Part shown: piece after piece, positions 12,299 to 27,429 of the stretch | Position numbering within the stretch: the first letter of the stretch is position 1 | How the letters are laid out: each line of letters starts with the position of its first letter | Assembly: GCA_007376135.1 (NCBI GenBank) | Contig: VMFR01000005.1 | Location: 4,141 to 68,140, forward strand | DNA: 64,000 nt | Reading direction: 5' to 3' | Source of the DNA: Parcubacteria group bacterium Gr01-1014_31 | GTDB taxonomy: Bacteria; Patescibacteriota; Patescibacteriia; Buchananbacterales; GWA2-38-13 | Notes under the pieces: model-generated | Database searches by the model: none | The model's input: the letters and a program-made list of their open reading frames with translations, nothing else | Told to the model about the DNA's origin: nothing | Translations under genes and position numbers: made by a program

Positions 12299-12316
12299 GG
12301 TCCCGCGAATGAGGAA

Positions 12317-12350
12317 CAAAACCGCCCCGCTTAAGCGGGGCGGTTTTGTT
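12317..12350. terminator. Bidirectional rho-independent terminator between convergent genes
   Basis: aaaaccgccccgcttaagcggggcggttttgtt. Confidence 0.7.
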
Positions 12351-12858: not shown

Positions 12859-13170
12859 ACTATTCTACTATTCACCCCGTTAGAGATTCGCAAGTGAACG
12901 CTTGAGGCGATTCTTCAGATAACGTTTCCCCATGCCGGATTTGAGATACGTCTCGCGTGCCCGCGCATCATCTTCGTTCAGACACGCTTCGTAATACAGC
13001 AGCCGAAACTGGCCTCGATGTTTAGTTGATTGGACCGTTCGTTCATTATGGATCCTCAAGCGTTCACGCAGATCGCTCGTATAACCGGTGTACCAACGTT
13101 TGTCCTTCAAACTTTGTAGTACGTAAGTGTAGAACATGAATCTCTAACGGGGTGAGCGCGAATAGTACCA
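12859..13170. mobile_element. Small TIR-bounded element carrying a GIY-YIG endonuclease gene
   Basis: Left end ACTATTCTACTATTCACCCCGTTAGAGA (12859-12886). Right end TCTCTAACGGGGTGAGCGCGAATAGTACCA (13141-13170). This gives a 15-bp perfect inverted repeat plus an ACTATTC outer match, and the IR overlaps the gene's stop codon. Related copies lie at 13483-13516, 14877-14952 and 15589-15665. Confidence 0.6.
12880..13137 (-). CDS. GIY-YIG nuclease family protein, 85 aa
   Basis: YTYVLQSLKDKRWYTGYTSDLRERLRIHN is the GIY-YIG motif. Confidence 0.7.
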   Translation of the reverse strand: MFYTYVLQSLKDKRWYTGYTSDLRERLRIHNERTVQSTKHRGQFRLLYYEACLNEDDARARETYLKSGMGKRYLKNRLKRSLANL

Positions 13171-13194
13171 TTGAACGAAATCTGGTAAATACGG

Positions 13195-13455
13195 CTAGAG
13201 AAGGGAGAGCAACTGCTTGACGATAACATGCTGCTGCCGAGCCAGAGCGTAGCAAACCAGCAGACTCTGCTTCTCGTACTCAATAATGTCGGCGGCCGAA
13301 AGGACCCGCAAATGCTTGGAAGTTGCCTTGAACGAAAGGCGAATTGCTTCGGCAATATCGCCCACCGGAGCCCCGGGGTGGCGCTTTAAATACTGCAAAA
13401 TTGCCAGCCGGCGGCGGTTGGCAGTCGCTTTCATCAGTTTCTCCAGGTTCTTCAT
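13195..13455 (-). CDS. ArsR/SmtB family transcriptional regulator
   Basis: ANRRRLAILQYL...VGDIAEAIRLSFKATSKHLRVL winged HTH. Confidence 0.7.
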   Translation of the reverse strand: MKNLEKLMKATANRRRLAILQYLKRHPGAPVGDIAEAIRLSFKATSKHLRVLSAADIIEYEKQSLLVCYALARQQHVIVKQLLSLL

Positions 13456-13482
13456 GCTCCCAAGCTTATCACAAGTCCTGCA

Positions 13483-13516
13483 CCTATGGAACTATTCGCG
13501 CGAATAGTTCCATAGG
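13483..13516. repeat. Perfect 34-bp palindrome directly upstream of the arsR start; resembles two element termini joined head-to-head
   Basis: CCTATGGAACTATTCGCGCGAATAGTTCCATAGG. Each half matches the right terminus of the GIY-YIG element (GCGCGAATAGT[A/T]CCAT). Confidence 0.6.
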
Positions 13517-13527
13517 ATGAACGGGGT

Positions 13528-14862
13528 TTACAGCAGAGCGGACGGATGACGGCACTGCGCAAGGAACTCCCGCTGCACCTTTTTCCGTTCCAGCAGACCC
13601 ACCTCCCGGAGGAAGGCGGCATCCTGCGCCGACTGCTCGCGCAATTTTTTGTCCAGCACGATAACCTGCTCATTCACCTGCAGCGCCAGGTCGTTGAGCC
13701 CGACCAACTTGATGCCGGCCAGCGTTCGCACGCGCGAGAGCGCCACGTACCCCATCCCGTATTCGAAGGTCTTTCCCAGGTCTATTTCGGCGCAATCCAG
13801 GCTCATACCCTGGCTCTTGTGCACGGTAATGGCCCACGCCAGCCGAAGTGGTATTTGGATGATGGACGCCAGGACCTTGCCGTCGTCCTCAATTGCCCAC
13901 GTTTCCGTCTGGGCTTTTATCTCCTCCCCGCTCAGCGTGGTAACCATAGGAAAACCGTCGTCCTCGTCAAACCCCGTCACGGTGCCGATGGTGCCGTTCA
14001 CGTAGCCCCGGTTGAAATTGTTCCGGATGAACATCACCACCGCCCCGACCTTCAGCGGCAGCTCCTGGTGGGCCAAGCAACCCCGCTGCAGCTCTTCTAC
14101 AAGGTGCGGGATGCCAATCGCTCGCATCGTGAACACTTTTTCCTCGCCGGGCAGTTTGTCGAGTTGCGTGAGATTGTACGCGTCCACGTCCGAATTGTGC
14201 GTGTACAGCAGCGTCGGCCGCACGATGCCGGCAACGGGCTGGTGCAGGCGTTCGCGCAGAATGTCGCGCGTCTCATCGGACACCCGGTTTTCTCGGATAT
14301 CGTTGAGTACGCGCAAAAACCGCTCATCGGCCTGCCGGTACTGCTCTTCCAGATAGCACACGGCAACGTCGGCGTTCTGCCAAGCTGCCGACTCGACGGC
14401 AAACCGGGGATCCTGGCCGTCGCGGGGCACGGGCGGCAGCTGGAAAAAATCTCCGCAGAACACTATCTGCAAACCGCCGAACGGCCGCAGGTCCTGCCGT
14501 ATAGATTTGCAGATGAGGTCCACCAGGTCCAACCGCTTGGCGTTCAGCATGGAAATTTCGTCGATGACCAAAACGCTGGCATAGTGCACGCGCGGCCACA
14601 GCTGCTCTTTTTCCAGCACCCTTTTCAGCTGCGCGTCGTTCAGCGTTTCGTGGATGCCCATACCGATCCATGAGTGGATGGTTCGGCCGTTCAAGTGCGT
14701 CGCGGCAATGCCGGTCGGCGCGGTGACCCCGACGTTGACCTTGTGTTTCAGAAGATACTCGATGTACCGGTTCAGCAAAAAAGTCTTGCCGCTCCCCGCC
14801 GGGCCGGTGAGAAAGACATTCCTGCCCGTCTTGAGCATTTCGTACGCCTCAAACCGCCGCAT
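13528..14862 (-). CDS. PIF1/RecD-like ATP-dependent DNA helicase
   Basis: Walker A GPAGSGKT, DEISML, and the FCGDFFQLPPV motif of the Pif1 family. Confidence 0.75.
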   Translation of the reverse strand: MRRFEAYEMLKTGRNVFLTGPAGSGKTFLLNRYIEYLLKHKVNVGVTAPTGIAATHLNGRTIHSWIGMGIHETLNDAQLKRVLEKEQLWPRVHYASVLVIDEISMLNAKRLDLVDLICKSIRQDLRPFGGLQIVFCGDFFQLPPVPRDGQDPRFAVESAAWQNADVAVCYLEEQYRQADERFLRVLNDIRENRVSDETRDILRERLHQPVAGIVRPTLLYTHNSDVDAYNLTQLDKLPGEEKVFTMRAIGIPHLVEELQRGCLAHQELPLKVGAVVMFIRNNFNRGYVNGTIGTVTGFDEDDGFPMVTTLSGEEIKAQTETWAIEDDGKVLASIIQIPLRLAWAITVHKSQGMSLDCAEIDLGKTFEYGMGYVALSRVRTLAGIKLVGLNDLALQVNEQVIVLDKKLREQSAQDAAFLREVGLLERKKVQREFLAQCRHPSALL

Positions 14863-14876
14863 AACATCAAAATACG

Positions 14877-14952
14877 ACTATTCTACTAATTTACCCCGCT
14901 AAAAGCGGGGTTCGCTCTCACCCCGCCAACGGCGGGGTAAATAGTACCATGG
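14877..14952. mobile_element. Gene-less (MITE-like) copy of the GIY-YIG element family
   Basis: ACTATTCTACTAATTTACCCCGCTAAAAGCGGGGTTCGCTCTCACCCCGCCAACGGCGGGGTAAATAGTACCATGG. Same termini as the 12859-13170 element, with two internal CCCCGC/GCGGGG hairpins. Confidence 0.5.
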
Positions 14953-14959
14953 TGGGTTT

Positions 14960-15160
14960 TTAGGGTTTGGGGTGAGTGTGCTGCACGCGGCCGACCACAC
15001 CGCTCTGCAAGCGGACCTTGATGCCGTGCGGATGGGTCGCGGAACTGGTCAAAATCTCCTGCACGATGCCGCGGGTCAGTTTCCCCGTCCGCTGGTCTTC
15101 TTTTTGGATAATGTCCACCTCCAAGCCTTCGACAATGTCTTCCCTATTTGGCACGGTCAT
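14960..15160 (-). CDS. YwbE (DUF2196) family small protein
   Basis: GLEVDIIQKEDQRTGKLTRGIVQEILTSSATHPHGIKVRL closely matches YwbE. Confidence 0.65.
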   Translation of the reverse strand: MTVPNREDIVEGLEVDIIQKEDQRTGKLTRGIVQEILTSSATHPHGIKVRLQSGVVGRVQHTHPKP

Positions 15161-15408
15161 ATTTTTCTAAAGAATCTAGAACGCTCAACAATATAGGCGG
15201 CAAGTTCTGGCTTGGTAAGACTTTCACCTAATTTTCTCTTGATCCTCAACCCAATCTGACGTATACGCTCCCTTGTTACACCCATTTCCTCACCGACTTC
15301 CTGGAGCGTCTTCCCTTCAAGTCGCAGGCTTAGGATTTTCTTTTCGCGAGGAGTGAGAAAATCTTCCTGCATTATCTTTTGCAAAACCGTGCTGTACTGC
15401 TGGGGCAT
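15157..15408 (-). CDS. Sigma-70 region-4-like HTH protein (small LuxR/sigma-factor C-terminal domain protein)
   Basis: [43 protein letters not shown]. Confidence 0.55.
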   Translation of the reverse strand: MPQQYSTVLQKIMQEDFLTPREKKILSLRLEGKTLQEVGEEMGVTRERIRQIGLRIKRKLGESLTKPELAAYIVERSRFFRKI

Positions 15409-15459
15409 AACTGTACTTATTTCTCCGTCATTGATGTGAGAAATACTGAATATAATTTA

Positions 15460-15531
15460 CGCCCTCGGCAGGACTTGAACCTGCAAATCCTCGTTAGAAC
15501 CGAGGCAGTTTATCCGTTAGCTTACGAGGGC
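15460..15531 (-). tRNA. tRNA-Arg (anticodon TCT)
   Basis: Hand-folded from sequence. Acceptor GCCCTCG/CGAGGGC. Anticodon stem CCTCG/CGAGG with loop GTTCTAA. T-arm GCAGG-TTCAAGT-CCTGC. Discriminator G. No CCA encoded. Confidence 0.75.
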
Positions 15532-15588
15532 ATGATTCCGACCCAGCACTGCCCCCTTCTCTTCTGCGGTGTAAACATAATCCCTGGA

Positions 15589-15665
15589 AACTATTCCCCT
15601 ATTTACCCCGCTGATAAGCGGGGTTCGCGCTTGACCCGCCGTTGGTAGTGGCGAATTAGAGAATG
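15589..15665. repeat. Degenerate copy of the TIR element family
   Basis: ACTATTCCCCTATTTACCCCGCTGATAAGCGGGGTTCGCGCTTGACCCGCCGTTGGTAGTGGCGAATTAGAG aligns with the 14877-14952 copy. Confidence 0.45.
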
Positions 15666-15673
15666 GGTTGAGT

Positions 15674-16474
15674 TTAGTAGAAGGTCATGTCGGGGTCGAA
15701 CTGACGGAGTTTCTTTGGCATGACGTCGTCGAGGTGATCCAGATCTTCGGGTACCAGCTCGATGAGCGGCAGTTTATATTTTGCGTACAGCGCTTGTTTG
15801 ATCGCCTTGCGCTTCAAGTAATCGGGCTTATCGTTCATGCCCCAAAATTCCACATACACACCCATCCGTTTCGTCGGCAACGGGATCAAAAAATCACACA
15901 CCAACGGTTCGGCCACCGGCACCCGTCGCTCATACCCATGCGGAATCAAATTGTGGTACAGCCAGTTGTCGATCGTTACCTCGGCGAAACTCCGAACATA
16001 GTGGCCGTCATCGGTGAATTTTTCGGGGTGGAACTCGTCACTGAAACGGAAATCGTGCTCCCAGGAGGTTTCGACATGATACTTCCCAAACGTCCGTTCG
16101 ACGGCCGCAACTTCCGCTGGCGTAAGCACCACCGGCGGGTAGTAACCTGTTTTCACTTTCTGAAAATTCAGCGCGCCTTTCAGCTGGAGACGGGTTAGTT
16201 GATAACGCCGGATTTTCCAAATCACACGCACCTGCTGCGAAAATTTTCCACCCCACGCCTCTGGAACTATATTGCCCTGCACCGTACCCAGCGCACGGAA
16301 CGTGCCGAACAGCCGCTCGGACATCAAATTGTACAGGTAGACAAAATCACCCTCGAGCAACTCCGCTAGCTGTTTCGCATGGATTGGCTTCTCTCCAAAC
16401 AACATCCGCTGGAAACACTCGTCCTGTGTGACATTAGTACAACGGAAAATATAGCCTTTGGGTGTGGACGGCAT
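15674..16474 (-). CDS. DCD (PUA-like/EVE-related) domain protein with an uncharacterized C-terminal domain
   Basis: PKGYIFRCTNVTQDECFQRMLFGEKP matches the DCD-domain N-terminal signature. Begins 14 bp after the MmeI-like stop. AT-rich. Internal Met taken as the start. Confidence 0.5.
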   Translation of the reverse strand: MPSTPKGYIFRCTNVTQDECFQRMLFGEKPIHAKQLAELLEGDFVYLYNLMSERLFGTFRALGTVQGNIVPEAWGGKFSQQVRVIWKIRRYQLTRLQLKGALNFQKVKTGYYPPVVLTPAEVAAVERTFGKYHVETSWEHDFRFSDEFHPEKFTDDGHYVRSFAEVTIDNWLYHNLIPHGYERRVPVAEPLVCDFLIPLPTKRMGVYVEFWGMNDKPDYLKRKAIKQALYAKYKLPLIELVPEDLDHLDDVMPKKLRQFDPDMTFY

Positions 16475-16487
16475 AAAAACAGCAAAA

Positions 16488-19298
16488 CTATGAAATCGTA
16501 CGGCGCGGCGAGGGTCTTTTCGTTGGTTTACTCTTACTTCCTGGATGTTCTTCTTTCCCGAGATACGCCTTGTACAGCCCAAACAAAAACTCTAACCGTT
16601 CGGGTTCGGTTTTGAAATCCCGCTTGCCGTAACATGCGTCAACCGCTCTGTCGAGGTTGTGGTGAGCATCGAGCAGCTCTTTTGGCATGGTGTTAGGATC
16701 ATAGAGATCGGCCAAAGTTGAACTGGTAAACTTTGCACGAGCATCAAGCACTGCCTGGGCTGCATTCTCAACAGCTTCTTTCTTATCCATCAATGGATTC
16801 TCCGGCCAAGGAAAGCTGTTGTAAACGATATCCTTCGAGTAACGGTAATCAGATTTTAGACGCCCTGCCACAGTACGCATCCAGGCCATGTGCATCCTAC
16901 TTTCCAATACTCCGAAATGGTAAAGACCCGCGCCAGAAACAATAAAAACTGCATCGCCTGCCAACGTATCTTTCCCCATAAAACCTATGGGGATATATTG
17001 GCGACGCTCGGAAGATACTTTTGGAATGACAAGGTAATCCCCATCTGGAATATTCTCAACATGGAAATGCGTTGGTTTTTCGGCCAGCCTTCGCGTTGGT
17101 TCACTTTTACTAAGGGCACGATATTGCCTTACGGCATTAATCCGTCGCATTACCTCAGGCAAGGAACGGATCTCATCTGGCCGTGCGTCACCTACCCATA
17201 GGCACCAGCGCTCAATCCCGTTAAGGAATTCTTCCGAGCCAATCCAACGTTTAAAGAATTTCTCCGCGCGTGGCTCTAAATGTAAAAACTTTAATTTTTC
17301 GGCCGCCGAGAAAAGATACATCCCTCCATCTATGGGCTTATTCCCAATTCCGATTTCTGGAATAATGCCCAAAGGTGCACGACGCCTCTCAAGAAAAACA
17401 TCAGGTGCGTCGACGAGATATGGATTAATATGAGAGGCGATAATCTCGTGTGGCTCGCCACGAATATCTTCGTATTCATATATCTTGAGAGTTTCGCCGG
17501 GCTGGCACCCAAAACCTATCACAACACAATACACAGCGGCTTTCCCCGGCGCCTCATTCGTCCACTTGAAAGTGCGATGTGCAAAATTAATATGGACCCT
17601 GTATCTCCCCATCATTTCATGCCATAGAATTCCTACCTGTTCTCCTTGAGTGATTGAATTAGTAGACACAAACGCACAGCTAATCGCGGTACCTTGAATG
17701 TATTGAGCTGCTTTGAGGTACCAACCTGAAACATAATCTAATACGCCACCTCCACTCTTATCACCAAACAACGAAACGATTTCCGCTCGTTGTTCATCAG
17801 CCATAACCTTCGAGCCAATAAACGGTGGGTTACCGACTATGTAGGTAAGTTTTTCCTCGGATACAAGTAATCGCCAGTCAATCTTCAGTGCGTTCCCCTG
17901 CATAATATGTGGCTGCTCAATGAGTGGAAGTTTACGGAGAGGCTCACCAAAGTAATCACCTAGTTGAACGTTTGTCATATGATCAGTCAACCAAAGTGAT
18001 AGCTGCGCAATCTGCGACGGGAATGATTCAAGTTCAATCCCAAACATCCTCTCGACGGAAAGTTTCGAAAGTTTCGATAAATCAATTTCCATCAGTAATA
18101 CACCCTGCCCGGCATCTACCCTAGCTGTGCGATCTTTATGCAATCGTTTAATTATCTCTAACTCAATTCTGCGTAGTTCACGATACGCGATGACAAGAAA
18201 GTTTCCACAGCCGCAAGCAGGATCAAGTAACGTAATTTTGGCTAACTTTTCCCATAAGGTGTTAAGCTTAGTAGTATTATTACCTACTGTCCTCAGTTCC
18301 CGCTCTAAATCATCTAGGAACAAACCACTTAGTACCTTAAGGATATTCTTCTCTGAGGTGTAGTGTGCACCTAAGTCATGGCGAGCTCGATCATCCATGA
18401 CCGATTGGAACATGGACCCGAATATCGCAGGCGAAATAACTGACCAATCAAATTGTACCGCCGCGATGATTGCGTCTCGGATGCCACGAGTGCCGAAGAG
18501 TGCGGGCAGCGGGGCGGCAAAAAGTCCACCATTAACGTATTCTAATGATGCAAGATCCTCATCAAAGTTTGTCTGCCGCTGGGCCGGCGGTGTATTTAGT
18601 ATTTGAAAAATTAGGCTTAGATGTGCACCAATATCTGAGCCGTCTTCTTTCGTTCTTTCTTCAAGGTAGTTACGGAAAAAATCACTATTAAAAATTCCGG
18701 TGTCATCGGCAAAGAAACAAAACACCAAGCGCGTCAGGAGCTTATCAATGGCCTCCCGGGGGTAATTCGTGATACGGATGGCTTCGTATAACTTTCCGAT
18801 GGCTTGAACCGCCTTAACACTAATGGGGTTTTCTTCACGATATGTCCGAACCCGAAATCCAGGAATGAAACTAAACAGCTTGATCTTTTTGGGGAATTCT
18901 TTAAGCTCGAATTCCTCCTGAAAAACCCCGCCGTCGGCCTCCAGATCATAAAACCGAATTCGAGCATAGTCCGTTACAACGATGTAACGAGGGCGATCAA
19001 CCTCTGGGAGCGCATCAAAATACGATCCTGCCTGTTGGTACGCGCTGTCTAAATTTTTACCGCCGCTTTTGTGTTCAACTATCAACGTGCCAGGCCAGAA
19101 TAAATCGATGAATCCACGATGGCGCTCACCGATGAGATTTACTTTTTCCTGATATCGGGCAACTGTGCGTCGTCGAATTCCGTATACCTCAAAAAACTCA
19201 TTCCAAAAAGACTGGTACTCACCGACTTCACTAGTCTGCCCCGCCCATTCACGGGCGAACGCGACTGCCTGGGCTCGTATTTCATTCCAATTCAGCAT
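16488..19298 (-). CDS. MmeI-family Type IIL restriction-modification enzyme (fused endonuclease, gamma-class N6-adenine methyltransferase and target-recognition domain)
   Basis: Collinear similarity to MmeI along its length: WNEIR, FFEVYGI, GFIDLFWPG, PRYIVVTDY, DPACGCGNFLVIAYRELR, GNPPFIG, CAFVSTNSITQGEQV, INFAHRTFKWTNEAPGKAAVYCVVIGFG, RWCLW, RQYIPIGF, RYRYSKDIVYNSFPW, DLYDPNTMPKELLDAHHNLDRAVD. 936 aa; MmeI is about 919 aa. Confidence 0.85.
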   Translation of the reverse strand: MLNWNEIRAQAVAFAREWAGQTSEVGEYQSFWNEFFEVYGIRRRTVARYQEKVNLIGERHRGFIDLFWPGTLIVEHKSGGKNLDSAYQQAGSYFDALPEVDRPRYIVVTDYARIRFYDLEADGGVFQEEFELKEFPKKIKLFSFIPGFRVRTYREENPISVKAVQAIGKLYEAIRITNYPREAIDKLLTRLVFCFFADDTGIFNSDFFRNYLEERTKEDGSDIGAHLSLIFQILNTPPAQRQTNFDEDLASLEYVNGGLFAAPLPALFGTRGIRDAIIAAVQFDWSVISPAIFGSMFQSVMDDRARHDLGAHYTSEKNILKVLSGLFLDDLERELRTVGNNTTKLNTLWEKLAKITLLDPACGCGNFLVIAYRELRRIELEIIKRLHKDRTARVDAGQGVLLMEIDLSKLSKLSVERMFGIELESFPSQIAQLSLWLTDHMTNVQLGDYFGEPLRKLPLIEQPHIMQGNALKIDWRLLVSEEKLTYIVGNPPFIGSKVMADEQRAEIVSLFGDKSGGGVLDYVSGWYLKAAQYIQGTAISCAFVSTNSITQGEQVGILWHEMMGRYRVHINFAHRTFKWTNEAPGKAAVYCVVIGFGCQPGETLKIYEYEDIRGEPHEIIASHINPYLVDAPDVFLERRRAPLGIIPEIGIGNKPIDGGMYLFSAAEKLKFLHLEPRAEKFFKRWIGSEEFLNGIERWCLWVGDARPDEIRSLPEVMRRINAVRQYRALSKSEPTRRLAEKPTHFHVENIPDGDYLVIPKVSSERRQYIPIGFMGKDTLAGDAVFIVSGAGLYHFGVLESRMHMAWMRTVAGRLKSDYRYSKDIVYNSFPWPENPLMDKKEAVENAAQAVLDARAKFTSSTLADLYDPNTMPKELLDAHHNLDRAVDACYGKRDFKTEPERLEFLFGLYKAYLGKEEHPGSKSKPTKRPSPRRTIS

Positions 19299-19365
19299 GG
19301 TTCGGAGTCGAGTAAATCATTCAAGCTTTTTTAATGACTAACAATTCTCCAGCATTCCAGTGTGT

Positions 19366-19400
19366 CAATTTTCCCACCATTGGGCCAAAAAGTCAAAAAC
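19366..19400 (-). promoter_or_regulatory. Promoter-like motif copy A upstream of the MmeI-like gene
   Basis: On the minus strand: TTGACT-TTTTGGCCCAATGGTGG-GAAAAT. Near-identical copies lie at 22496-22530 and 25783-25815. Confidence 0.45.
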
Positions 19401-19429
19401 AAACGGGGCTATTAGCCTTTCTTCAAAGA

Positions 19430-19460
19430 ACAAAAAAACGCCAGCATGAGGGCTGGCGAT
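19430..19460 (-). terminator. Rho-independent terminator on the minus strand, following the PRTase-like gene
   Basis: Minus strand: gccagccctcatgctggc followed by ttttttt. Confidence 0.55.
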
Positions 19461-19718
19461 TCCTCTTAAGAGCTCATACTAGAAGATTTCAAATGCAACG
19501 CGTCAGCTATTTGAATTTACAATTCACATAGATACCTTTTAATAGAGCCCGCACTTTTATCTTAGCACTACTCAGCTTAGTAGGCCAGAATAGTATCAAG
19601 GTATTCGATAACGGCTGTAGCTTAGGCCAGTCCACTATTGTGGCGCTTTTTAGAAAACTTCCGCCGTTCTTTAGTGAACAGAAATTTTATGGTGCGCATT
19701 TCTTAATCGCACACTCCT

Positions 19719-20579
19719 TTACCCGCGGACTAGATCAGTAATGCGTGGAAAAATGCCAAATTTACTATCCTGTCCCACGTTGCCCCTGAAAATGCTAGGC
19801 ACGCCATTAGGTGTATTCCTATAAAAAACTACCATAGAGGCAAGGCCTCTATAACCCAATGGAGCCCCCCGATCTCCCTCCCTGCAATAACCAACCAGCC
19901 TCTCTCTTTCTACATCATCAAGAATTATACTATCAGGGTGCAATGGTCGATCATTCTTATCGTGGATATAATCACAGACGATTTCGACGCCTACTTTAGT
20001 AATTGCAGCGAAGGCTTCGCGACAAATGCAAGGCAAGAGAAAAAATTCAGAAAACTGACCTATCAAAGGAACTTCTTTTGCGACATAATTTCTTGAATTT
20101 AAAAATTGATCACCAGTCCCCGAAAAATCATCAACATATATAATAGCGCCACTTCCTAGGCTGATTGTCGTCTTGATGAGCTCAAGTAAGTTTTGACAAT
20201 CGATAATATGCACGCGCTTTCGTTCTAGATTAGCTTTATCGCGGAGTAAGTTAAGCATCAAGTGGCTACTACTTGCTGGCTTGTCCACGGTCACATATAT
20301 AACTTTTTCTAATGCTACCCCTCGACTTTGTAATTTAGCTAGTAACTTTCCATTGTGTTTGACGAGGACATCTTCCGTCTTTTGTTCCGAATAATACCGG
20401 ATATGACTCAACAAGGACAAAATTAGATGGTGATCAGTTTTAGGAAATTGATCGAGCCAACTAAGAACTAATTGCGGGTGGACTTTTTGAGGGTGGTAAT
20501 CCTTAACTCGCCTACAAAAGTGCAGAATCCTCAAGTAATCTAAGGGATGCAACATCGCCCATGATAAATTATTCATCAT
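19719..20579 (-). CDS. Phosphoribosyltransferase (PRTase)-like domain protein
   Basis: AIIYVDDFSGTGDQF resembles the PRPP-binding loop (hhhhDDhxxTG). AT-rich. Start uncertain; overlaps the upstream gene's end. Confidence 0.4.
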   Translation of the reverse strand: MMNNLSWAMLHPLDYLRILHFCRRVKDYHPQKVHPQLVLSWLDQFPKTDHHLILSLLSHIRYYSEQKTEDVLVKHNGKLLAKLQSRGVALEKVIYVTVDKPASSSHLMLNLLRDKANLERKRVHIIDCQNLLELIKTTISLGSGAIIYVDDFSGTGDQFLNSRNYVAKEVPLIGQFSEFFLLPCICREAFAAITKVGVEIVCDYIHDKNDRPLHPDSIILDDVERERLVGYCREGDRGAPLGYRGLASMVVFYRNTPNGVPSIFRGNVGQDSKFGIFPRITDLVRG

Positions 20580-21576
20580 CTGTCGGGGTGCCATCCTCCA
20601 TTTTCGCAAGCAGATTTGTAATATAGACCTGCACACCCCTCACGGCCCTCACAAAATCTTTATTAACCTCGCTTGTTAGCTGAGATTCCAATCCCCTTAA
20701 CTTTTCTACAAGATCATTACAAGCGGTAATTGCTGTTGTAATATTTCGAGGTGGCAAAAAAATATCAAAAGTATCACGAGTTTCTAGCTCTATGTGGTTC
20801 ACGTATTCTTTTAACTTTGATTTAAATTCTTTCTCCCGGTTCTGTTCTTGGGCTTTTGCCGATGCTTCAATTATCCTTCGGAAATGAATTACGCTTACGA
20901 TCTTCCCTGATTTGTATTTATCAACAAGCCTTTGAATCAAAACTTCTCTGCCAAGTTCCCTAAATAATCCTGGTAGTTTATCCTCATAAATCTTAATGAC
21001 CGGGTAGGCCTCAATCCAAAAATTCGAAGCCACTCGTCTATCGGGCTCTGACTCTAGAGACAAAGCCTGAAACTTTTCCGGAAAGCTAAGTAATATTTTG
21101 CAACGCTCCACCTGCATCTCACTTAAACCCGTAAGATCAGATATCTTTTTATTATCGTCTTCGTGCAGCTCTTCAATGATGGTTTTCAGACTAATCGCAG
21201 TTGGCATTAGCTCCCATTGTTGTCTAAAGTTATGAATCGAAAACATGTAAAGCAGGCCGGCAATTTTTGTCGGTGGCTCAACAATATTAGCGGGTATAGT
21301 AATCTCAAAACCATCATCAGCCAATTCCGCGCAACACCGAAACCGTCTCTCCCCATCTAAAATTGCATATTTTTCTTGTCCTTTAATTTTGTAAGCGGTG
21401 ATCGGTACAAGTACCCCATGTTGTTGGATACTTTCTTTTAATTCTCGTAAGGGCACGGGGTCGAATAACTTTCTGGGGTTATTTCGATTTGGTTTTATCT
21501 CGGTGACATGAAGATGCTTGAGTAGTCCGGTAGGAACAACTTCCGTAATAACTTTATGTTGTTTATTACTAGACAT
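20569..21576 (-). CDS. ParB/sulfiredoxin-like nuclease domain protein
   Basis: HVTEIKPNRNNPRKLFDPVPLRELKESIQQHGVLVPITAY...LDGERRFRCC is the ParB N-terminal domain with its GERR motif. Confidence 0.65.
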   Translation of the reverse strand: MSSNKQHKVITEVVPTGLLKHLHVTEIKPNRNNPRKLFDPVPLRELKESIQQHGVLVPITAYKIKGQEKYAILDGERRFRCCAELADDGFEITIPANIVEPPTKIAGLLYMFSIHNFRQQWELMPTAISLKTIIEELHEDDNKKISDLTGLSEMQVERCKILLSFPEKFQALSLESEPDRRVASNFWIEAYPVIKIYEDKLPGLFRELGREVLIQRLVDKYKSGKIVSVIHFRRIIEASAKAQEQNREKEFKSKLKEYVNHIELETRDTFDIFLPPRNITTAITACNDLVEKLRGLESQLTSEVNKDFVRAVRGVQVYITNLLAKMEDGTPTDDE

Positions 21577-21580
21577 TATT

Positions 21581-22387
21581 TTAAACCAATATGTTTGAAA
21601 TCAAAAATTCTCGAGCAGCTTTCCGATTAGAGGAGAACCCAGCTATGCTTCTCCTCACAGAAATTATTCTTTTATAAAATCCTTCCGAAAGCATTTTCGC
21701 CTCATTTGATTCTAAATAGCTAACCAAAAAAGGAATCCGCATGCGACTAAGCCTGCGCATCCATTTTCGTAATCTAATAAGCTTTTTGAAATCAAATTTA
21801 GAGCTATCATAGTCTGTAAAAATGTTTTTGTTATGGACACTGAAAGGCGGATCCATATAGACAAAATCTCCTTTCCGAACGTAACGAAGTGTTTCATCAA
21901 AATCAGCAGCTAAGAGATGTGCCCTCTTCAAAAGCTTAGAAGAACGAGAAAAGACAAGCTCGCTCGGGATGCTGCCAGTTTTGCCGTAAGGCACATTAAA
22001 TTGGCCTGATTGATTTGTTCTATATAAACCATTGAAACAAAAACGATTGAGATACACAAAACGAGCCGCCCTTACCAATGGGTTGTTGATTTTTTTTGAA
22101 TCAAGAGACCTTAGCGAGTAATATGTCTGCTTAGATTGATCTAGCTCTTCTAATATAGCCAAGACTCCTTTCCAATCTTTTTTTATCTGCCTATAGGTAG
22201 CTATCAACTCAAGATTAATATCAGCGAGTAGGGCCTCTTTTGGGGCTACATTAAAAAAGAGGCACGCAGATCCGGCGAACGGTTCCACATACCGCTTACT
22301 TTGACTTGCGCGCCAATAACTGGAAAGTAACGGTACTAACTGCCTCTTGCTGCCAGCCCAACGTAAAATTGTATAATTAGCTGCCAT
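21581..22387 (-). CDS. Dam-family DNA N6-adenine methyltransferase
   Basis: LRWAGSKRQLVPLL...YVEPFAGSACLFF (AdoMet-binding motif I) and DPPF (motif IV). Confidence 0.8.
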   Translation of the reverse strand: MAANYTILRWAGSKRQLVPLLSSYWRASQSKRYVEPFAGSACLFFNVAPKEALLADINLELIATYRQIKKDWKGVLAILEELDQSKQTYYSLRSLDSKKINNPLVRAARFVYLNRFCFNGLYRTNQSGQFNVPYGKTGSIPSELVFSRSSKLLKRAHLLAADFDETLRYVRKGDFVYMDPPFSVHNKNIFTDYDSSKFDFKKLIRLRKWMRRLSRMRIPFLVSYLESNEAKMLSEGFYKRIISVRRSIAGFSSNRKAAREFLISNILV

Positions 22388-22495
22388 TCACAATTATTAT
22401 TATACGCCCAGTTCTTATTAAAAGAAAAAATTCCCTAATATGACTGACCGGAAGTGAAGTAAACCATATCGAAAAAAATAGTCTATTACCATTCC

Positions 22496-22530
22496 AATGG
22501 TCCCACCGTTAGGCCAAAAAGTCAAAACCT
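22496..22530 (-). promoter_or_regulatory. Promoter-like motif copy B upstream of dam
   Basis: Minus strand: TTGACT-TTTTGGCCTAACGGTGG-GACCAT. Confidence 0.4.
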
Positions 22531-22658
22531 CGATGCGCCCATTGGTAGGAAAGTAGGTAAAAAATCGAGGCCCCGCCTCGGGCGGGCAGGGAGCAAAGCG
22601 GTGGGTCCCGCCAACGGCGAGGTAGGCCATTTACCCGGTAATGACGGTTTGAGGTTAC

Positions 22659-22772
22659 TGGATTCCCGCCTTCGCGGGAATGACGGTTTTTTTGATTTCT
22701 GGACCTCCGCTACGGCGCGGGGATGGCGGTTTCTGGTTTTTTTCTGGACCCCCGCCTACGCGGGGTGACAAT
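22659..22772. repeat. About 2.7 tandem copies of a 41-45 bp hairpin unit
   Basis: TGGA(T/C)(T/C)CCCGC(C)T(T/A)CG(G)CG(C)GGG(A/G)ATG(A/G)CGGTTT..TTTTT. A related gggaatgacgatttgtttt lies near 25870. Confidence 0.5.
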
Positions 22773-22773
22773 A

Positions 22774-22806
22774 CAAAAAAGCGCCACCAGCAGGTGGCGC
22801 TTTTTC
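22774..22806. terminator. Rho-independent terminator ending the DUF5674-to-DUF4342 operon
   Basis: aaaaaagcgccaccagcaggtggcgcttttt. Confidence 0.7.
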
Positions 22807-22816
22807 AACGATATCT

Positions 22817-23104
22817 CTACCCCCTCCTCTCCACCACAATCGTGCAATTGGCAACCAGCGCAGCAATGGCACCGATGGCCGCCCAAATCGGGATGAGGGC
22901 GACGCCGACCACGCCGATGGTGAGGGGAAATTCCAAAATAGTGTGCCCCTTCTCATTTTTGATGATGATACGCCGGACGTTGCCCTCCTTCACTAGGGCT
23001 TTTATCCTTTTCACCACGTCGCCGCCCGAAACTTTGAACTCTTCGTGCCGCACGTTTTCTGCCATATGTTTGGTGGTTAGTAGCGCTTCAATTCTCGCAG
23101 GCAC
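22817..23104 (-). CDS. DUF4342 family small protein
   Basis: VKRIKALVKEGNVRRIIIKNEKGHTILEFPLTIGVVGVALIPIWAAIGAIAALVANCTIVVER matches my recollection of DUF4342. Confidence 0.55.
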   Translation of the reverse strand: MPARIEALLTTKHMAENVRHEEFKVSGGDVVKRIKALVKEGNVRRIIIKNEKGHTILEFPLTIGVVGVALIPIWAAIGAIAALVANCTIVVERRG

Positions 23105-23618
23105 CGCGAACGTAAGAACTCACCAGCGAATTGCGGCAGGCTTCGCACGCGTTGGAAAACGTTTGCTGAATCGGATAGCATGGTGCCCTGATACACTGGA
23201 TTTGCACTGTTCCGCACACGGGGTCGTACTGCTGGGTGCAGACCTCGGCGTTCCGCGACTCCGGCGTACAAGTAGCAGACCCCCCTGCCGGCGGCTTGGC
23301 ACCCGTGCAGCGCCAGTTGATTTCTGCTGTTTTGGTCTCCGCGCTCACGACGCAAGCCGGGTTGCAACCCTCGCGCGTAGCGTTCAGGTTGGCATCAAAC
23401 CACCACGTCTTTGAATTCTCGTTGAAAGAGCCGGGGGCCAGGGTCTCCCCGCCCTTGATACAGGTTGCCTCCGCAATTTCCCGCGCCTGGGCTTCCGTGA
23501 AATCGGCCGGGCTCGGCTCGGGCGTTACGGTTGGGGACGGTGTTGGAGTTGGCGTTACCGCGGGCGTACACCCCGCCAGCACCACAACCGCTGCGCTTGC
23601 AACAAAGTATTTCAGCAT
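23088..23618 (-). CDS. Lipoprotein with a C-terminal Kazal-type inhibitor-like domain
   Basis: Lipobox VVLAGC, Pro/Thr linker, then CTQQYDPVCGTVQIQCIRAPCYPIQQTFSNACEAC (Kazal-like YDPVCG...FSNAC..C). Confidence 0.5.
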   Translation of the reverse strand: MLKYFVASAAVVVLAGCTPAVTPTPTPSPTVTPEPSPADFTEAQAREIAEATCIKGGETLAPGSFNENSKTWWFDANLNATREGCNPACVVSAETKTAEINWRCTGAKPPAGGSATCTPESRNAEVCTQQYDPVCGTVQIQCIRAPCYPIQQTFSNACEACRNSLVSSYVRGACEN

Positions 23619-23746
23619 ATACAAGGTGATACGACAGCAAAGCAAATAAGTAACTTACTCAATAATTCTCACACTACTGGAAGGTGGAGCCAAAAACAGT
23701 GAAGCGGGGAGCATGAAGTAAGGAGTAAGAGTACCGGAAACGATTT

Positions 23747-25087
23747 CTACCGAATGCCGGTATCGCAGGAAAGCCGTACTTCATGCAGCGCCCCCGGTTC
23801 GATGGCGATGGTTTGCGTCTCACAGCGAGGAAAGGGGTTGCCACCGACGGGCTGCAAGCCGTACTCGCCCGGCGGGAGCATCACGCGGAAATTGCCCTCC
23901 TGGTCGGTTTCCGCGATGGCAAACGGGGCGCTGCTTGGACTGTCGGCGGCAATCACCTGCACCGCCGTCACGTAGGGCTTATCCGCGCACGCCGGGTCGG
24001 GAGGTTCCCGCTGCACCGGGCAGTTGGGGCCAAGTATGACTTTTCCCTGCACGCCGGAATCGTACGGCAAAATACCGCCGCTCCCCGGCGTTGGTGCCGC
24101 CATTGGCTCCCAGCCAAACGGGACGGCGCACGGCGTTGGGAAATCCTTTTCCTCGCCGGTCAGCGTGCTTTTCGCGCGCGTGATGACCTGAATGCAAACC
24201 ATCGAACTTCCCTCGCCCCGAGCTTGGCGGGCCAGGAGATTCAAACGGCCATCCTTCATCTCGTAGTACTCCACCGCAACGCCGGCAGGCGCTTCCGAGA
24301 GCTCATCGAGGTACAGCGGCGGATTTGCGACCAGCAGCCGACTGTCCAGCCGGTACTGCAACGAAAACGCGCTGCCTAAACTGTACTCTACAATTGCACC
24401 GGTCTTCGCGTCCACAATGGCATGCATCTGACACGACGCACCACAACCCCATTCAATGACGGTATAGTGGCCGGCAAAATTTGGCCCGTAGGTGAGTCCG
24501 TCAATAATCCTTGGCCCAACGATCTTTGCCGCCGCCGGGGATGTCTCGAAATCAACGTTGGCACGCGGTCCGGTATACGCATCTGGGGCTGGATAATCAC
24601 TGAAGCGGTACAGGTATGGCGTAGCTACATCCAACAACCATACCGCCGGGCCTTCGTAGGGCGAACCGTGCAGCACATGCACGCGCGGGGCCAGCAGCTC
24701 CCCGACCGGTTGCGAAATCGCGTACTCCCCATTGGCCGCCACGCTGAACACATACTCTTTCTTGTCCCCGAACCACAGCGAGAGCGGCTCACTGGTCTTG
24801 TTCTTGATGACGAGGCGCTGCTTGGCCGTCATTTTCTGGCAACGCGGGGAAGGAACGTCTTGGTTCACCTCCACGCGAACGACGTTTTCATCGCCCGGTT
24901 CAACACACGCTCCGACAGCGGGATACTCGCTGTCGGCCGGCAAGACTGCGGCCAGCGGTTTGCCACCACCCTGGTCGGGCTGATCGTTCCCGCTGGGGGT
25001 GCGGCTGGGACGGCGAATCGCAAAAATTGCAATTCCCGCAACGGCAACCAGCGCCACGGCAGCGACGACGAGAATAATTTTTTTCAT
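23747..25087 (-). CDS. Hypothetical membrane-anchored extracytoplasmic protein
   Basis: N-terminal TM ILVVAAVALVAVAGIAIFAI; no recognizable domains. Confidence 0.45.
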   Translation of the reverse strand: MKKIILVVAAVALVAVAGIAIFAIRRPSRTPSGNDQPDQGGGKPLAAVLPADSEYPAVGACVEPGDENVVRVEVNQDVPSPRCQKMTAKQRLVIKNKTSEPLSLWFGDKKEYVFSVAANGEYAISQPVGELLAPRVHVLHGSPYEGPAVWLLDVATPYLYRFSDYPAPDAYTGPRANVDFETSPAAAKIVGPRIIDGLTYGPNFAGHYTVIEWGCGASCQMHAIVDAKTGAIVEYSLGSAFSLQYRLDSRLLVANPPLYLDELSEAPAGVAVEYYEMKDGRLNLLARQARGEGSSMVCIQVITRAKSTLTGEEKDFPTPCAVPFGWEPMAAPTPGSGGILPYDSGVQGKVILGPNCPVQREPPDPACADKPYVTAVQVIAADSPSSAPFAIAETDQEGNFRVMLPPGEYGLQPVGGNPFPRCETQTIAIEPGALHEVRLSCDTGIR

Positions 25088-25108
25088 ACGGTTATTTTCA
25101 CACCGACA

Positions 25109-25438
25109 TTACAAATGCGCCCGCGCGGCGTAATTGAAGGGGTAAAAATAATTACGCCACAGCTGGTCGGTAGATTTCCATTGATTGTCACCGACAAAAT
25201 AATCGCTCAACACTTCGCGGACCCGCGCGATCTCCTTGCAGCGCCGCCTGTTTTTTCCGTCCGCCAGGGTCAGGTCGATGAGTTCCAGCGCGCGCTCGAA
25301 CGCCAGGCGGCTGTACTCCGGATTTTTGCTCCGCCACGAGATGGTCCGCTCCACTTCGCTGCCGATATTGGCCAGCTGCTCGATCAGCGAAAGCTCGCGC
25401 CATTTCCCGTTCGCTAATTCCCGATGTTGGTAGGTCAT
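25109..25438 (-). CDS. Hypothetical protein, 109 aa
   Basis: ORF translationally coupled (ATGA) to the upstream DUF5674 gene. Confidence 0.4.
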   Translation of the reverse strand: MTYQHRELANGKWRELSLIEQLANIGSEVERTISWRSKNPEYSRLAFERALELIDLTLADGKNRRRCKEIARVREVLSDYFVGDNQWKSTDQLWRNYFYPFNYAARAHL

Positions 25439-25776
25439 TTCGTTACCAGCTGAGTTACTATCGCAACGATCTTTTTCTGCAGCGCCGGGTCTTGCACGCT
25501 GCGGCTGCGGTTGTCTTGCGACGGCCGCAGGTTGATCATCGAGTCGAATTCGATAAAATTTTCCTCTTGTTCATCCGGATACAGGTTGATACCCCACAGG
25601 TCGGCTTGCAGAGAACCCTGCTCAAGCAGGTACGCCTCTTCGTCGGCGTGCAGCTCGGCGTCAATCGCCATGATCTTTTTCTCCACGTCAACTACCGCTT
25701 TGACCATATTGCCAAAACCATGCGCAGCGATCTGCCGCAACTCCGCAAGAGTTACCGGGGACTGGATGATACGCAT
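25435..25776 (-). CDS. Conserved small protein resembling DUF5674
   Basis: GFGNMVKAVVDVEKKIMAIDAELHADEEAYLLEQGSLQADLWGINLYPD...FDSMINLRPSQDNRSR. The promoter-like motif ends 7-11 bp from the ATG, so the transcript is probably leaderless. Confidence 0.45.
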   Translation of the reverse strand: MRIIQSPVTLAELRQIAAHGFGNMVKAVVDVEKKIMAIDAELHADEEAYLLEQGSLQADLWGINLYPDEQEENFIEFDSMINLRPSQDNRSRSVQDPALQKKIVAIVTQLVTK

Positions 25777-25782
25777 AAAAAA

Positions 25783-25815
25783 ATTTTCCCACCGTTAGGC
25801 CAAAAAGTCAAAATC
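25783..25815 (-). promoter_or_regulatory. Promoter-like motif copy C immediately upstream of the DUF5674 ATG
   Basis: Minus strand: TTGACT-TTTTGGCCTAACGGTGG-GAAAAT, with the -10 ending about 7 nt before the ATG. Confidence 0.45.
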
Positions 25816-25965
25816 ATGAAGTAGGGAACCCGTAACAAGTGGGAGAGGAATTTTTTCTAGATTCCCTCTGCGTCTCGGGAATGACGATTTGTTTTCCCCC
25901 TCACCCAACCCTCTCCCACATCGGGGAGAGGAAAATTATTTTGGGTATAATACAGGTGCTCCTGG

Positions 25966-27429
25966 TTAGTCACCCAAATCAATCACCTCATCAATACGGA
26001 TCTGCGCGACAAAGTCGGGCAAATGCGAGACTAGCACCATTCCGCCGGCGTACTGATCCAGTGCCTGCGCAATGATGGGCAGGTGGCGGAAGTTGATGTG
26101 GTTGGTGGGCTCATCCAGCAGCAGGACGGCGGGCGCCAGGAGTACCAGTCGGCAGAACGACAGCAACCCTTTCTGGCCTTCGGATAACGCGCGGATGGGG
26201 CTGGAAAGCAGCTTCCCGTCAAGCAGGAAACCCGCCGCGGCAGAGCGCAAGAGGTGCTCGTCGGGGCGCTCCATCGCGGCTTTGAGCACCGCGAACGCCG
26301 TCAGGTCGGGGTCCAGGTTGCTGAAATCCTGCTTGTAGTATCCCACGCGCACTTCGGGAGAGATGACTGCATCATCAAAACCGCCGGCATTCAACCGTTC
26401 CAGCAGCGTACTCTTACCCACCCCGTTGGGCCCCGCCAGCAGGACGTGGGTGTCTTTTCGCACCGTCAGATCCAGCGGCCGGCGCACGGGGGCGTGGTTT
26501 TTCAGCGCGGTCACGGCGCGAAACGCGATGAGCTGGCCGTCGAAGTGCCGATCCAGCGCCTGGACCGGAATGGTGAACGGGCGGATGACCTTGTCTTCGC
26601 GGCGCACGTCCACCATCTGTTCTTCGGCAGTCTCGGCAACTTGGCGCATGCGTTTGGCGACGCTCCGCAATTTTCCCCCCTTGTGAGCAAACACTTCCGC
26701 TTGGGCGCGCTTTTCCCGCACCTGCGCTGCCAGGCGCGCGTTCTGCAGATTTTCCCGCTCGATGCGATTTTTGATCTCCTCCACCACCACGCTGTAGTTG
26801 CCGGTGTACTGCTCGATGGTGTGGTTGAACGCGTCCAGATACAGCACGCCGTCGGAAAACGCGTTGAGAAAATCCGCATCGTGGGAGATGACCACGCAGG
26901 TTTTCTCATACGCCATCAAAAAACCGGTCAGGTGCTCGATGCCGATGGCGTCCAGATTATTGGTGGGCTCGTCCAGCAGCAGGACATCCGGGTGCTGGAT
27001 GAGCGCGTGGGCCAGCAACAGCCTAGCTCTCTGGCCGCCGGAACATTTGTTCAGGTGGCGCTCGAAGGGAACGGACAGGTGCACTACTTCGCACACCTCG
27101 GCGATGAGTTTATCGAGATTGTACTTCTGCTCGGTGAACGCGCTGGCAAAGTATTCGCGCACCGTGTGGCCCAGCATCGCTTTGGGCATCACCTGCCGCG
27201 CAATGCCGATGGTGGCATCGGCGGGCGTGAGAAATACGGAACCCTCGGTCGGGGCAAGTTCTCGGGTGATGAGCTTGAAGATGGTGCTCTTGCCGGCGCC
27301 GTTCTGGCCCATCAAGGTGATGCGGCTGCCCGTGCGGACGGAAAAACTGGCTTCCTCAAGCAGCTTATGATCGTGCTCGTATTCGAAGCTCACGTTCGAG
27401 AACCGAAGGATGACGTTATCGTTGGCCAT
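25966..27429 (-). CDS. ABC-F family ATPase with two ABC domains
   Basis: Two Walker A sites (GQNGAGKST, GPNGVGKST) and two signature/Walker B regions (LSGGQRARLLLAHAL...LLLDEPTNNLD, LSEGQKGLLSF...LLLDEPTNH). Confidence 0.8.
   Translation of the reverse strand: MANDNVILRFSNVSFEYEHDHKLLEEASFSVRTGSRITLMGQNGAGKSTIFKLITRELAPTEGSVFLTPADATIGIARQVMPKAMLGHTVREYFASAFTEQKYNLDKLIAEVCEVVHLSVPFERHLNKCSGGQRARLLLAHALIQHPDVLLLDEPTNNLDAIGIEHLTGFLMAYEKTCVVISHDADFLNAFSDGVLYLDAFNHTIEQYTGNYSVVVEEIKNRIERENLQNARLAAQVREKRAQAEVFAHKGGKLRSVAKRMRQVAETAEEQMVDVRREDKVIRPFTIPVQALDRHFDGQLIAFRAVTALKNHAPVRRPLDLTVRKDTHVLLAGPNGVGKSTLLERLNAGGFDDAVISPEVRVGYYKQDFSNLDPDLTAFAVLKAAMERPDEHLLRSAAAGFLLDGKLLSSPIRALSEGQKGLLSFCRLVLLAPAVLLLDEPTNHINFRHLPIIAQALDQYAGGMVLVSHLPDFVAQIRIDEVIDLGD

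Follow-up and report, generated by a model that had tools for sequence, protein, structure and literature searches.

Why do the genes for a DNA adenine methylase, a ParB-like protein and a phosphoribosyltransferase (PRTase) stand together as one compact block in a Parcubacteria genome? The question arises from a 64,000-nt stretch of contig VMFR01000005.1 (positions 4,141 to 68,140; hereafter the window), whose source is the metagenome-assembled genome (MAG) 'Parcubacteria group bacterium Gr01-1014_31'. Here dam, a parB-like gene and a PRTase gene of the PRTase-CE family, all on the minus strand, are closely packed into about 2.7 kb. We found that this trio recurs widely, and it most likely represents a methylation-linked defence system that joins a borrowed retron-type effector to a ParB-type sensor, a combination for which the catalogues and the literature searched gave no description. 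The trio and its boundaries comprise the following features.

22817–23104: gene for a DUF4342 protein, upstream of the trio
22566–22591, minus strand: terminator-like hairpin with a T-run, which ends the upstream DUF4342 gene and forms the 5′ boundary of the trio unit
22501–22527, minus strand: copy of a promoter-like 27-nt motif (TTTTGACTTTTTGGCCTAACGGTGGGA), 114 nt upstream of the dam ATG
21581–22387, minus strand: dam, predicted D12-class N6-adenine methyltransferase, 268 aa
20569–21576, minus strand: gene for the ParB-like protein, 335 aa
19719–20579, minus strand: PRTase-CE gene, predicted effector, 286 aa when read from ATG 20579
19459–19718, minus strand: 3′ untranslated spacer of 260 nt, holding a 25-codon open reading frame (ORF) at 19622–19699
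19429–19458, minus strand: intrinsic-terminator-like hairpin (CGCCAGCCCTCATGCTGGCG) with T7, stem at 19458–19439, 3′ end of the unit

A preliminary description of the sequence had proposed a three-gene, operon-like module, and the reading frames, the spacing and the bounding terminators bear this out. The dam stop codon and the parB start codon are separated by the 4 nt given there (TAA-AATA-ATG). The small overlap of the ParB-like and PRTase genes is also real and amounts to 11 nt when the PRTase starts at ATG 20579, or to 26 nt with the NCBI annotation (291 aa, start at 20594). Alignment with homologues places the start at ATG 20579 and speaks against the GTG at 20636 that had been chosen earlier. 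Because the hairpin at 22591–22566 closes the upstream gene and a strong hairpin with T7 closes the trio, we regard the trio as its own transcription unit. The latter terminator had been located at 19430–19460, in agreement with our mapping, and the spacer that separates it from the PRTase stop codon is shorter than the 280 bp first reported.

One genome per species was scanned for the locus, which yielded 58 loci. Close relatives of the PRTase (identity of 38% or more) were present at 41 distinct genome loci, 37 of which carry Dam, ParB and PRTase on one strand in the same order; the other four are interrupted by a contig end or degraded. This is the co-occurrence that the preliminary description had proposed to look for. 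All context look-ups of PRTase homologues at 47–85% identity returned the order MethyltransfD12, ParB_N, PRTase-CE, and the intergenic gaps in the trio relatives range from −29 to +44 nt. The hosts are spread over about 13 phyla and include Saccharibacteria, Nitrospirota, Latescibacterota, Gemmatimonadota, Chloroflexota, Spirochaetia, Cloacimonadota, Rhodothermia, Ignavibacteria, Verrucomicrobia, Planctomycetota and one member of the Betaproteobacteria; many belong to the Acidobacteriota, among them Paracidobacterium acidisoli 4G-K13 (L010; NZ_QVQT02000004.1, within 493846–506658), the one cultured carrier that was found. Two more divergent PRTases, 24–25% identical to the window protein, likewise lie in Dam-ParB-PRTase trios. 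At one locus (L068:173–2909) Dam and ParB are 44–46% identical to the window proteins and the PRTase is 24% identical. Judged by these identities, divergence or exchange seems to be faster in the effector there than in its partners.

The pairwise-identity matrices of the three proteins are correlated with r = 0.86–0.92, and none of 999 permutations reached the observed value; this correlation could in part stem from a common species phylogeny. No fourth conserved gene was found: 143 flanking ORFs from 38 trio loci matched 132 Pfam families, each at most three times, and a PADLOC scan gave the same picture. The neighbours of the relatives are unrelated to one another, for example folate genes with leucyl-tRNA synthetase, carbamoyl-phosphate synthase, or restriction-modification genes with a serine recombinase. 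Other neighbours of the relatives include BglII/methylase and HNH/methylase pairs, serine recombinases, SNF2, an ORC-CDC6-like + SIR2 protein and EVE. We rejected an origin from phages or plasmids, as a tblastn search of 50,697 phage records and 72,556 plasmid records found nothing, and the only IMG/VR contig duplicates a scaffold of a Nitrospirota MAG. The trio is most likely a horizontally mobile, self-contained cassette.

The methylase, Dam, matches PF02086 (1.3e-45), scores 206 bits with TIGR00571 (cut-off 115) and has DpnM, a GATC methylase, as its nearest solved relative (7e-43). It carries the S-adenosylmethionine (SAM) motif EPFAGSA and the catalytic motif DPPF, and all 38 sequences keep EPF[AV]GSA and DPP[FY]. 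By fold, SAM motif and DPPY/F catalytic motif the protein is a D12-class enzyme with predicted methylase activity. Its PADLOC matches are to generic methylase models only. The observed/expected ratio of GATC, 0.88 in the host part and 0.91 in the low-GC island that surrounds the trio, is uninformative on GATC avoidance.

The second protein had been described as containing a ParB/Srx-like nuclease domain. It matches PF02195 (ParB_N; 4e-15) and, over residues 21–172, TIGR00180 (61 bits, cut-off 58.45), and a profile built from 36 homologues matches Noc, Spo0J/ParB and KorB over residues 6–181. The top Foldseek matches of its AlphaFold model (pLDDT, the predicted local distance difference test, 83) are the CTP-bound clamps Noc, KorB and ParB, with sulfiredoxin-type proteins far behind. 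An N-terminal nucleoside triphosphate (NTP)-binding domain with NPR and GERRFR boxes is followed by a helix-turn-helix (HTH), as in Noc/ParB/KorB, and then by a family-specific C-terminal helical domain (residues ~180–330). NPR and the DGxRR of the DGERRxR box are invariant among the homologues. A scan with NCBIfam gave classical ParB-family models (ParB/Noc, PRTRC, RepB, ICE ParB) and a weak serine-kinase match, and matched no DndB or DpdB model. Pfam and PADLOC scans matched no nuclease domain in this protein or in the PRTase. By motifs and modelled fold the protein is thus a predicted member of the ParB/Noc/KorB CTP-clamp family, and because its sequence and fold match those proteins it is better named an NTP-dependent DNA-binding protein than a 'nuclease domain' protein. 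Neither the operon nor the set of recurrent neighbours includes a ParA partner.

The third protein is, by its matches, of the retron-effector type that the preliminary description had suggested. Profile searches had been proposed there for all three families; the PRTase is assigned by them to PRTase-CE (PF24390; 2e-33), which stands beside the ParB_N and D12 matches given above. In PADLOC it matches retron effector models only, with the type III-A effector PRTase_III-A at 1e-24. The phosphoribosyl pyrophosphate (PRPP) loop is intact and has the motif AIIYVDDFSGTGDQF, as had been noted. The protein also has the Gx14PN(N/G)xP motif of retron effectors, here G...FYRNTPNGVP; in the study of Retron-Eco11, Gx14PNNxP was found to be typical of retron-linked PRTases (PMC12746101). 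In the homologue alignment the PRPP loop (VDD...G.Q) and the G...N..PN..P motif are invariant or nearly so. Together with the motifs kept in Dam and ParB, this shows selection on the active sites. The model is very confident (pLDDT 95), and its Foldseek matches to solved PRTases are weak (E = 3e-4 to 1e-2, 12–16% identity, query-normalised TM-score ~0.3). A profile search of the PDB sequences found no PRTase, and the PRPP loop alone is common to this protein and the housekeeping enzymes OPRT, HGPRT, APRT and UPRT. By these sequence features it is classed as a non-housekeeping member of the retron type III-A effector family and not as a salvage enzyme. A housekeeping-type match together with a trio confined to this genome had been listed beforehand as the outcome that would tell against a special role; the matches to solved PRTases are weak and the trio is widespread. 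Among 1.84 billion cluster representatives a profile returned 74 matches at E ≤ 1e-30 and 1440 at E ≤ 1e-3, so that the family counts as rare.

In the loci found here PRTase-CE proteins occur in three settings, the trio being one of them. The second is the retron. Comparison by hhalign aligned the trio PRTase with a retron-linked PRTase over the whole domain at 98% probability, and at one of our loci (L052) a PRTase-CE fused to a 'wHTH-PRTase associated' domain (wHTH, winged HTH) adjoins a reverse transcriptase (RVT_1), which is a retron arrangement. In Retron-Eco11 the effector is activated by phage helicases, PRPP falls by about half, and the effector is toxic and aborts the infection (PMC12746101). 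The third setting is a four-gene operon that opens with PRTase-CE; after it come genes for an ORC-CDC6-like ATPase, for a CARF6-like protein and for an N6 methylase (L053, L055, L057, L059, L060, L062). An example is L059:5803–10814, with ORC-CDC6-like PF24389 at 2e-134 and the CARF6-like PADLOC match at 3e-95. The hosts are Actinomycetota, a Rhodobacteraceae MAG and an Acidobacteriota MAG, and profile comparison aligned the PRTase of this operon with that of the trio over the whole domain (97% probability). A DNA-binding partner is present in all three settings and a DNA methylase in two of them. PRTase toxins are known further from the toxin-antitoxin system ShosTA (PMC11961720), and PRTase-fold toxins or effectors also from DS-32 and Ophion.

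More distant branches retain the pair of ParB and PRTase-CE and differ in methylase family or gene order. In two Alphaproteobacteria a 455-aa D12 methylase lies downstream, in one case (L050:2369–7811) with the PRTase split by an IS66 transposase and in the other (L051:4932–7415) on the opposite strand. At a third locus (L071:4010–7079) the pair is followed by a methylase of the N6_N4 family. The exchange of the methylase around a constant ParB and PRTase-CE suggests that the pair needs DNA methylation as such. Three loci are in decay: one has lost dam along with the N-terminal half of ParB (L021), one has lost the C-terminus of the PRTase and keeps dam and parB intact (L044), and one is decayed throughout (L041). 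In this small sample no locus has an intact ParB and PRTase without a methylase. The L071 locus also contains an ORC-CDC6-like + SIR2 protein, a faint CARF-like match in the next gene, an EVE protein and a helicase-nuclease. SIR2 is an NAD-consuming effector. Because this ORC-CDC6-like + SIR2 fusion with its faint CARF gene resembles the L059 operon with PRTase-CE, the effector position appears exchangeable, and by this analogy there is a hint that PRTase-CE can stand where a SIR2 domain stands.

Is the trio a known system under another name? No single catalogued system in PADLOC-DB 2.0 or NCBIfam 20.0 covers all components, and no specific NCBIfam model passes its cut-off. Full-text literature searches, whose reach ended before the supplements, returned no description of ParB with a PRTase or phosphoribosyltransferase and Dam or a methylase. 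That others had already catalogued the effector family is evident from its Pfam name, PRTase-CE. Among the closest known systems are type III-A retrons such as Retron-Eco11, which have the same effector family, PRPP loop and Gx14PN(N/G)xP motif (PMC12746101). In contrast to these, the trio lacks a reverse transcriptase, an msr/msd RNA and the C-terminal wHTH of the effector, and has a ParB-like protein and a DNA methylase instead. RVT_1 had no match in the window proteins scanned between 12880 and 25087, and no reverse transcriptase recurs in the flanks of the 38 trio loci. The four-gene operon resembles the trio in joining the same effector to a DNA-binding NTPase and an adenine methylase, but an ORC/Cdc6-type AAA+ protein, accompanied by a CARF-like partner, takes the place of ParB as sensor there, and the PRTase of the operon is ~22% identical to that of the trio. 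BREX and MADS likewise combine an N6-adenine methylase with non-nuclease partners, have exchangeable methylases and occur as mobile, patchy cassettes; the trio has no BREX or MADS protein, and its predicted effector is PRPP-dependent.

The ParB-like protein has the N-terminal domain with NPR and GERRxR in common with ParB/Spo0J, Noc and KorB, and then the HTH. It differs from them by HNFR(E/Q)Q in place of ENLQRE and by its own C-terminal helical domain, and the trio has neither the ParA nor a recognisable parS of a ParABS partition system. ParB/Srx-superfamily domains work with DNA-modification enzymes in conflict systems also in DpdB, DndB and the ParB-like domain of GmrSD (PMC12839542; PMC5512222). 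Unlike in phage ParB-methylase fusions, the trio genes are separate, and an HNH domain, a TGT-like protein and Dnd proteins are all missing. ShosTA, DS-32 and Ophion have PRTase-fold toxins or effectors of other lineages with other partners (pyrophosphatase/DprA-like, NADAR, and radical SAM + PHP). Membership in DS-32 was rejected, as the NCBIfam model gave 36.5 bits against a cut-off of 250. The trio also differs from type II restriction-modification systems in having no recurrent nuclease neighbour and no nuclease domain in ParB or PRTase.

We consider it an even call that the trio is a self-contained methylation-gated conflict system directed against phages or plasmids, which would follow the logic of restriction-modification without a nuclease. 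Through N6-adenine methylation, probably at GATC-like sites, the methylase would tag resident DNA as self. As an NTP-dependent clamp, the ParB-like protein would serve as DNA sensor and engage unmarked DNA, upon which it would recruit or activate PRTase-CE, a toxic PRPP-consuming effector. PRTase-CE might then drain the PRPP pool or transfer phosphoribose onto a base or nucleic acid, so that replication of the invader would be blocked or the infection aborted. The identities of the genes, the motifs kept in all three proteins, their common inheritance and fixed order, the exchange of the methylase, the kinship of the PRTase with retron effectors and the setting in an island with restriction systems are observed, and protection by methylation, the sensing of unmethylated DNA by ParB and the chemistry of the PRTase are steps that we infer; the anti-phage reading as such is reasonable.

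Several observations weigh against this reading. The correlation of the three identity matrices may have the phylogenetic component mentioned above. A toxin triggered by unmethylated DNA must ignore the hemimethylated products of replication, by means that the scheme leaves unexplained. In place of the canonical catalytic box ENLQRE the ParB-like homologues have an invariant HNFR(E/Q)Q, with the Glu of box III changed to His, and therefore NTP hydrolysis may differ from that of the known clamps. The ParB-like protein has no match in PADLOC-DB 2.0, and upstream of dam no 8–12-mer palindrome or shared k-mer of the parS kind was found across 39 loci. The association with defence islands is moderate, as housekeeping genes flank many loci. 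Finally, the frameshifts in two loci (L037, L045) may be long-read sequencing errors.

A more far-reaching version of the conflict system appears doubtful to us. In it a CTP-gated ParB clamp would load PRTase-CE onto the invader, where the enzyme would use PRPP to phosphoribosylate a base of the unmethylated DNA (e.g. at the adenine N6 that the methylase would otherwise block) or remove the base by pyrophosphorolysis. If true, base phosphoribosylation in place of cleavage would be a new restriction chemistry, and ParB the first classical partition-type clamp found to act as an immune sensor. The methylase could instead supply a danger signal: it would label host DNA, and m6-dAMP (N6-methyl-dAMP) or N6-methyladenine, released when a phage breaks down the chromosome, would activate or feed PRTase-CE and so cause abortive infection, with ParB tethering or regulating the effector. 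This has a precedent, as PUA-Calcineurin-CE-HAD is triggered by Dam-derived m6-dAMP and N6-adenine methylases without restriction enzymes accompany related effector modules (PMC12871103). Both nucleobases and nucleotides are ligands of PRTases, and across the loci the methylase family can change provided that some DNA methylase remains. Yet Pfam and PADLOC found no PUA, EVE or other modified-base reader domain in the trio, the scheme makes a DNA clamp superfluous, and the N6_N4-family partner at L071 might make N4-methylcytosine (m4C) rather than N6-methyladenine (m6A); we think this explanation rather unlikely. We judge it unlikely, too, that the trio is a DNA modification module in which the PRTase acts on DNA by base exchange or phosphoribosylation, ParB loads it as DpdB does for DpdA, the methylase sets a second mark and the restriction part lies elsewhere or is absent. 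ParB-like proteins do serve modification machines, with DpdB in Dpd and DndB in Dnd (PMC12839542), and PRTases make and break N-glycosidic bonds. The partner of PRTase-CE binds DNA in all three contexts, be it the wHTH (with msDNA; PMC12746101), the ORC-CDC6-like protein or ParB, and DS-32 couples a PRTase with a NADAR protein that resembles the ADP-ribosylglycohydrolase DarG. The retrons nevertheless use PRTase-CE as a toxic effector that lowers PRPP, and the comparison of L071 with L059 hints that it is interchangeable with SIR2 as an effector. Moreover, no reader or nuclease partner is conserved, and the trio ParB groups with Noc, ParB and KorB rather than with DndB or DpdB models.

The small size of this mobile cassette, its patchy distribution and its unrelated neighbours would equally suit a selfish addiction module. 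Here PRTase and ParB would form the toxin and the methylase the antidote, and the module would persist by post-segregational killing and not by phage protection. The pattern of decay fits a need for the methylase whenever ParB and PRTase are intact, and toxin-antitoxin systems such as ShosTA contain PRTase toxins (PMC11961720). But none of the 72,556 plasmids carries the trio, and such a role is compatible with defence, since restriction-modification and toxin-antitoxin systems do both; on balance addiction in place of protection seems quite improbable. By far the least credible explanation is that a partition ParB, a regulatory Dam and a salvage PRTase, all housekeeping genes, are adjacent by chance. 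The annotation would allow it, as the names are generic and homologues are labelled 'ParB family chromosome partitioning protein'. It is contradicted by the missing ParA, the low-GC island, the low identity of the PRTase to solved PRTases, the rarity of the family and the fact that phyla with unrelated contexts have kept the trio as a block.

Should the trio be a defence system, it would be the third deployment of the PRTase-CE effector, beside retrons and the ORC-CDC6/CARF operon, and a case of a classical ParB/Noc/KorB-type clamp acting as an immune DNA sensor. With a constant ParB and PRTase and exchangeable methylases, the trio offers a small and clean model for nuclease-free reading of methylation and for the action of PRTase-CE. 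It is common in soil Acidobacteriota and in bacteria of the candidate phyla radiation (CPR), groups in which few defence systems have been studied.

The preliminary description had also suggested that the stretch 3′ of the PRTase gene encodes a non-coding RNA or a small peptide. An Rfam scan of positions 12000–27000 at E ≤ 1 returned a tRNA only, with no RNA in the spacer and no msr/msd. The fold of the spacer (z-score −1.04) is no better than that of shuffled sequence. In alignment with close relatives the nucleotide similarity decays, in the closest one with a spacer the 25-codon minus-strand ORF is broken by an indel, and other trio relatives have no such spacer. We therefore rejected it as a component of the system.

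The trio lies in a segment of 39–50% GC (~15.1–22.6 kb) within a genome of 61% GC. This segment is a small defence island, in which no integrase was seen (~15100–22600). Its other genes, and three genes outside it, are listed here.

16488–19298, minus strand: complete MmeI-type IIG restriction-modification enzyme, 936 aa, with all five MmeI Pfam domains and a PADLOC REase_MTase_IIG match of 1123 bits; adjoins the trio downstream
15674–16582, minus strand: DCD + PD-(D/E)xK protein whose N-terminal domain is of the DCD (Development and cell death, PUA/EVE-like) type; in its C-terminal half both PDC-S69, a PADLOC candidate (1e-36), and a PD-(D/E)xK model find a match
15459–15532, minus strand: tRNA-Arg(TCT)
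15157–15408: small sigma-70 region-4/LuxR-type protein
13528–14862: PIF1/RecD-like helicase with weak PADLOC matches to PDC-S68 and RecD-like models, outside the island
13195–13455: ArsR-type HTH protein, outside the island
12880–13137: GIY-YIG protein, outside the island

A functional link between the trio and the MmeI-type gene was rejected, since the gene is absent from all other trio loci. For this reason, and because it has its own promoter-like motif, we regard it as an independent neighbour. The DCD protein may, from its domain composition, be a modification-dependent nuclease. The TTG listed as start of its ORF falls inside the end of the MmeI-type gene, and the true start is probably farther downstream.

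The promoter-like motif belongs to a 27-nt element (TTTTGACTTTTTGGCCYAAYGGTGGGA) with three copies in the window (19372–19398, 22501–22527 and 25787–25813), all on the minus strand and within 6.5 kb, where none is expected by chance. Each copy lies upstream of a minus-strand gene, and the one at 19372 precedes the MmeI-type gene. Two of the three read TTGACT-17-GAAAAT, with a TG just 5′ of the −10 hexamer; the copy before dam has the TTGACT −35 box and a degenerate −10 (GACCAT). Between the end of the copy at 25787 and the start codon (ATG) of a DUF5674 gene (25435–25776) lie 7 nt, which suggests a leaderless transcript. Exact copies were also found in three metagenome contigs (L073:10856; L074:2400 and 3186; L075:1782 and 2568), one of which, L073, is 79–81% identical to parts of the window. 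The genes that follow them are a DUF5674 homologue and, as judged by eye, RadC-like and methylase-like genes. Because exact copies precede different genes, we regard the element as a lineage-specific promoter-like cassette that is not part of the trio elsewhere. The 17-nt spacer is unusually conserved, a hint of a regulator site or else of a promoter cassette that is mobile. The earlier claim that a repeated promoter motif at 22496–22530 drives the trio thus holds as far as the repeat is concerned; a promoter role, as read from the sequence, is plausible but unproven, and the −10 box before dam is degenerate.

Outside the island, a type IV pilin-like protein was recognised by eye in the region 12349–14862. 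Short GC-rich hairpin repeats of the form ACCCCGC-N-GCGGGGT are found in intergenic positions around the island (14889–14942, 15596–15640 and 22607–22624) and look like repetitive extragenic palindromic (REP) elements or terminators.

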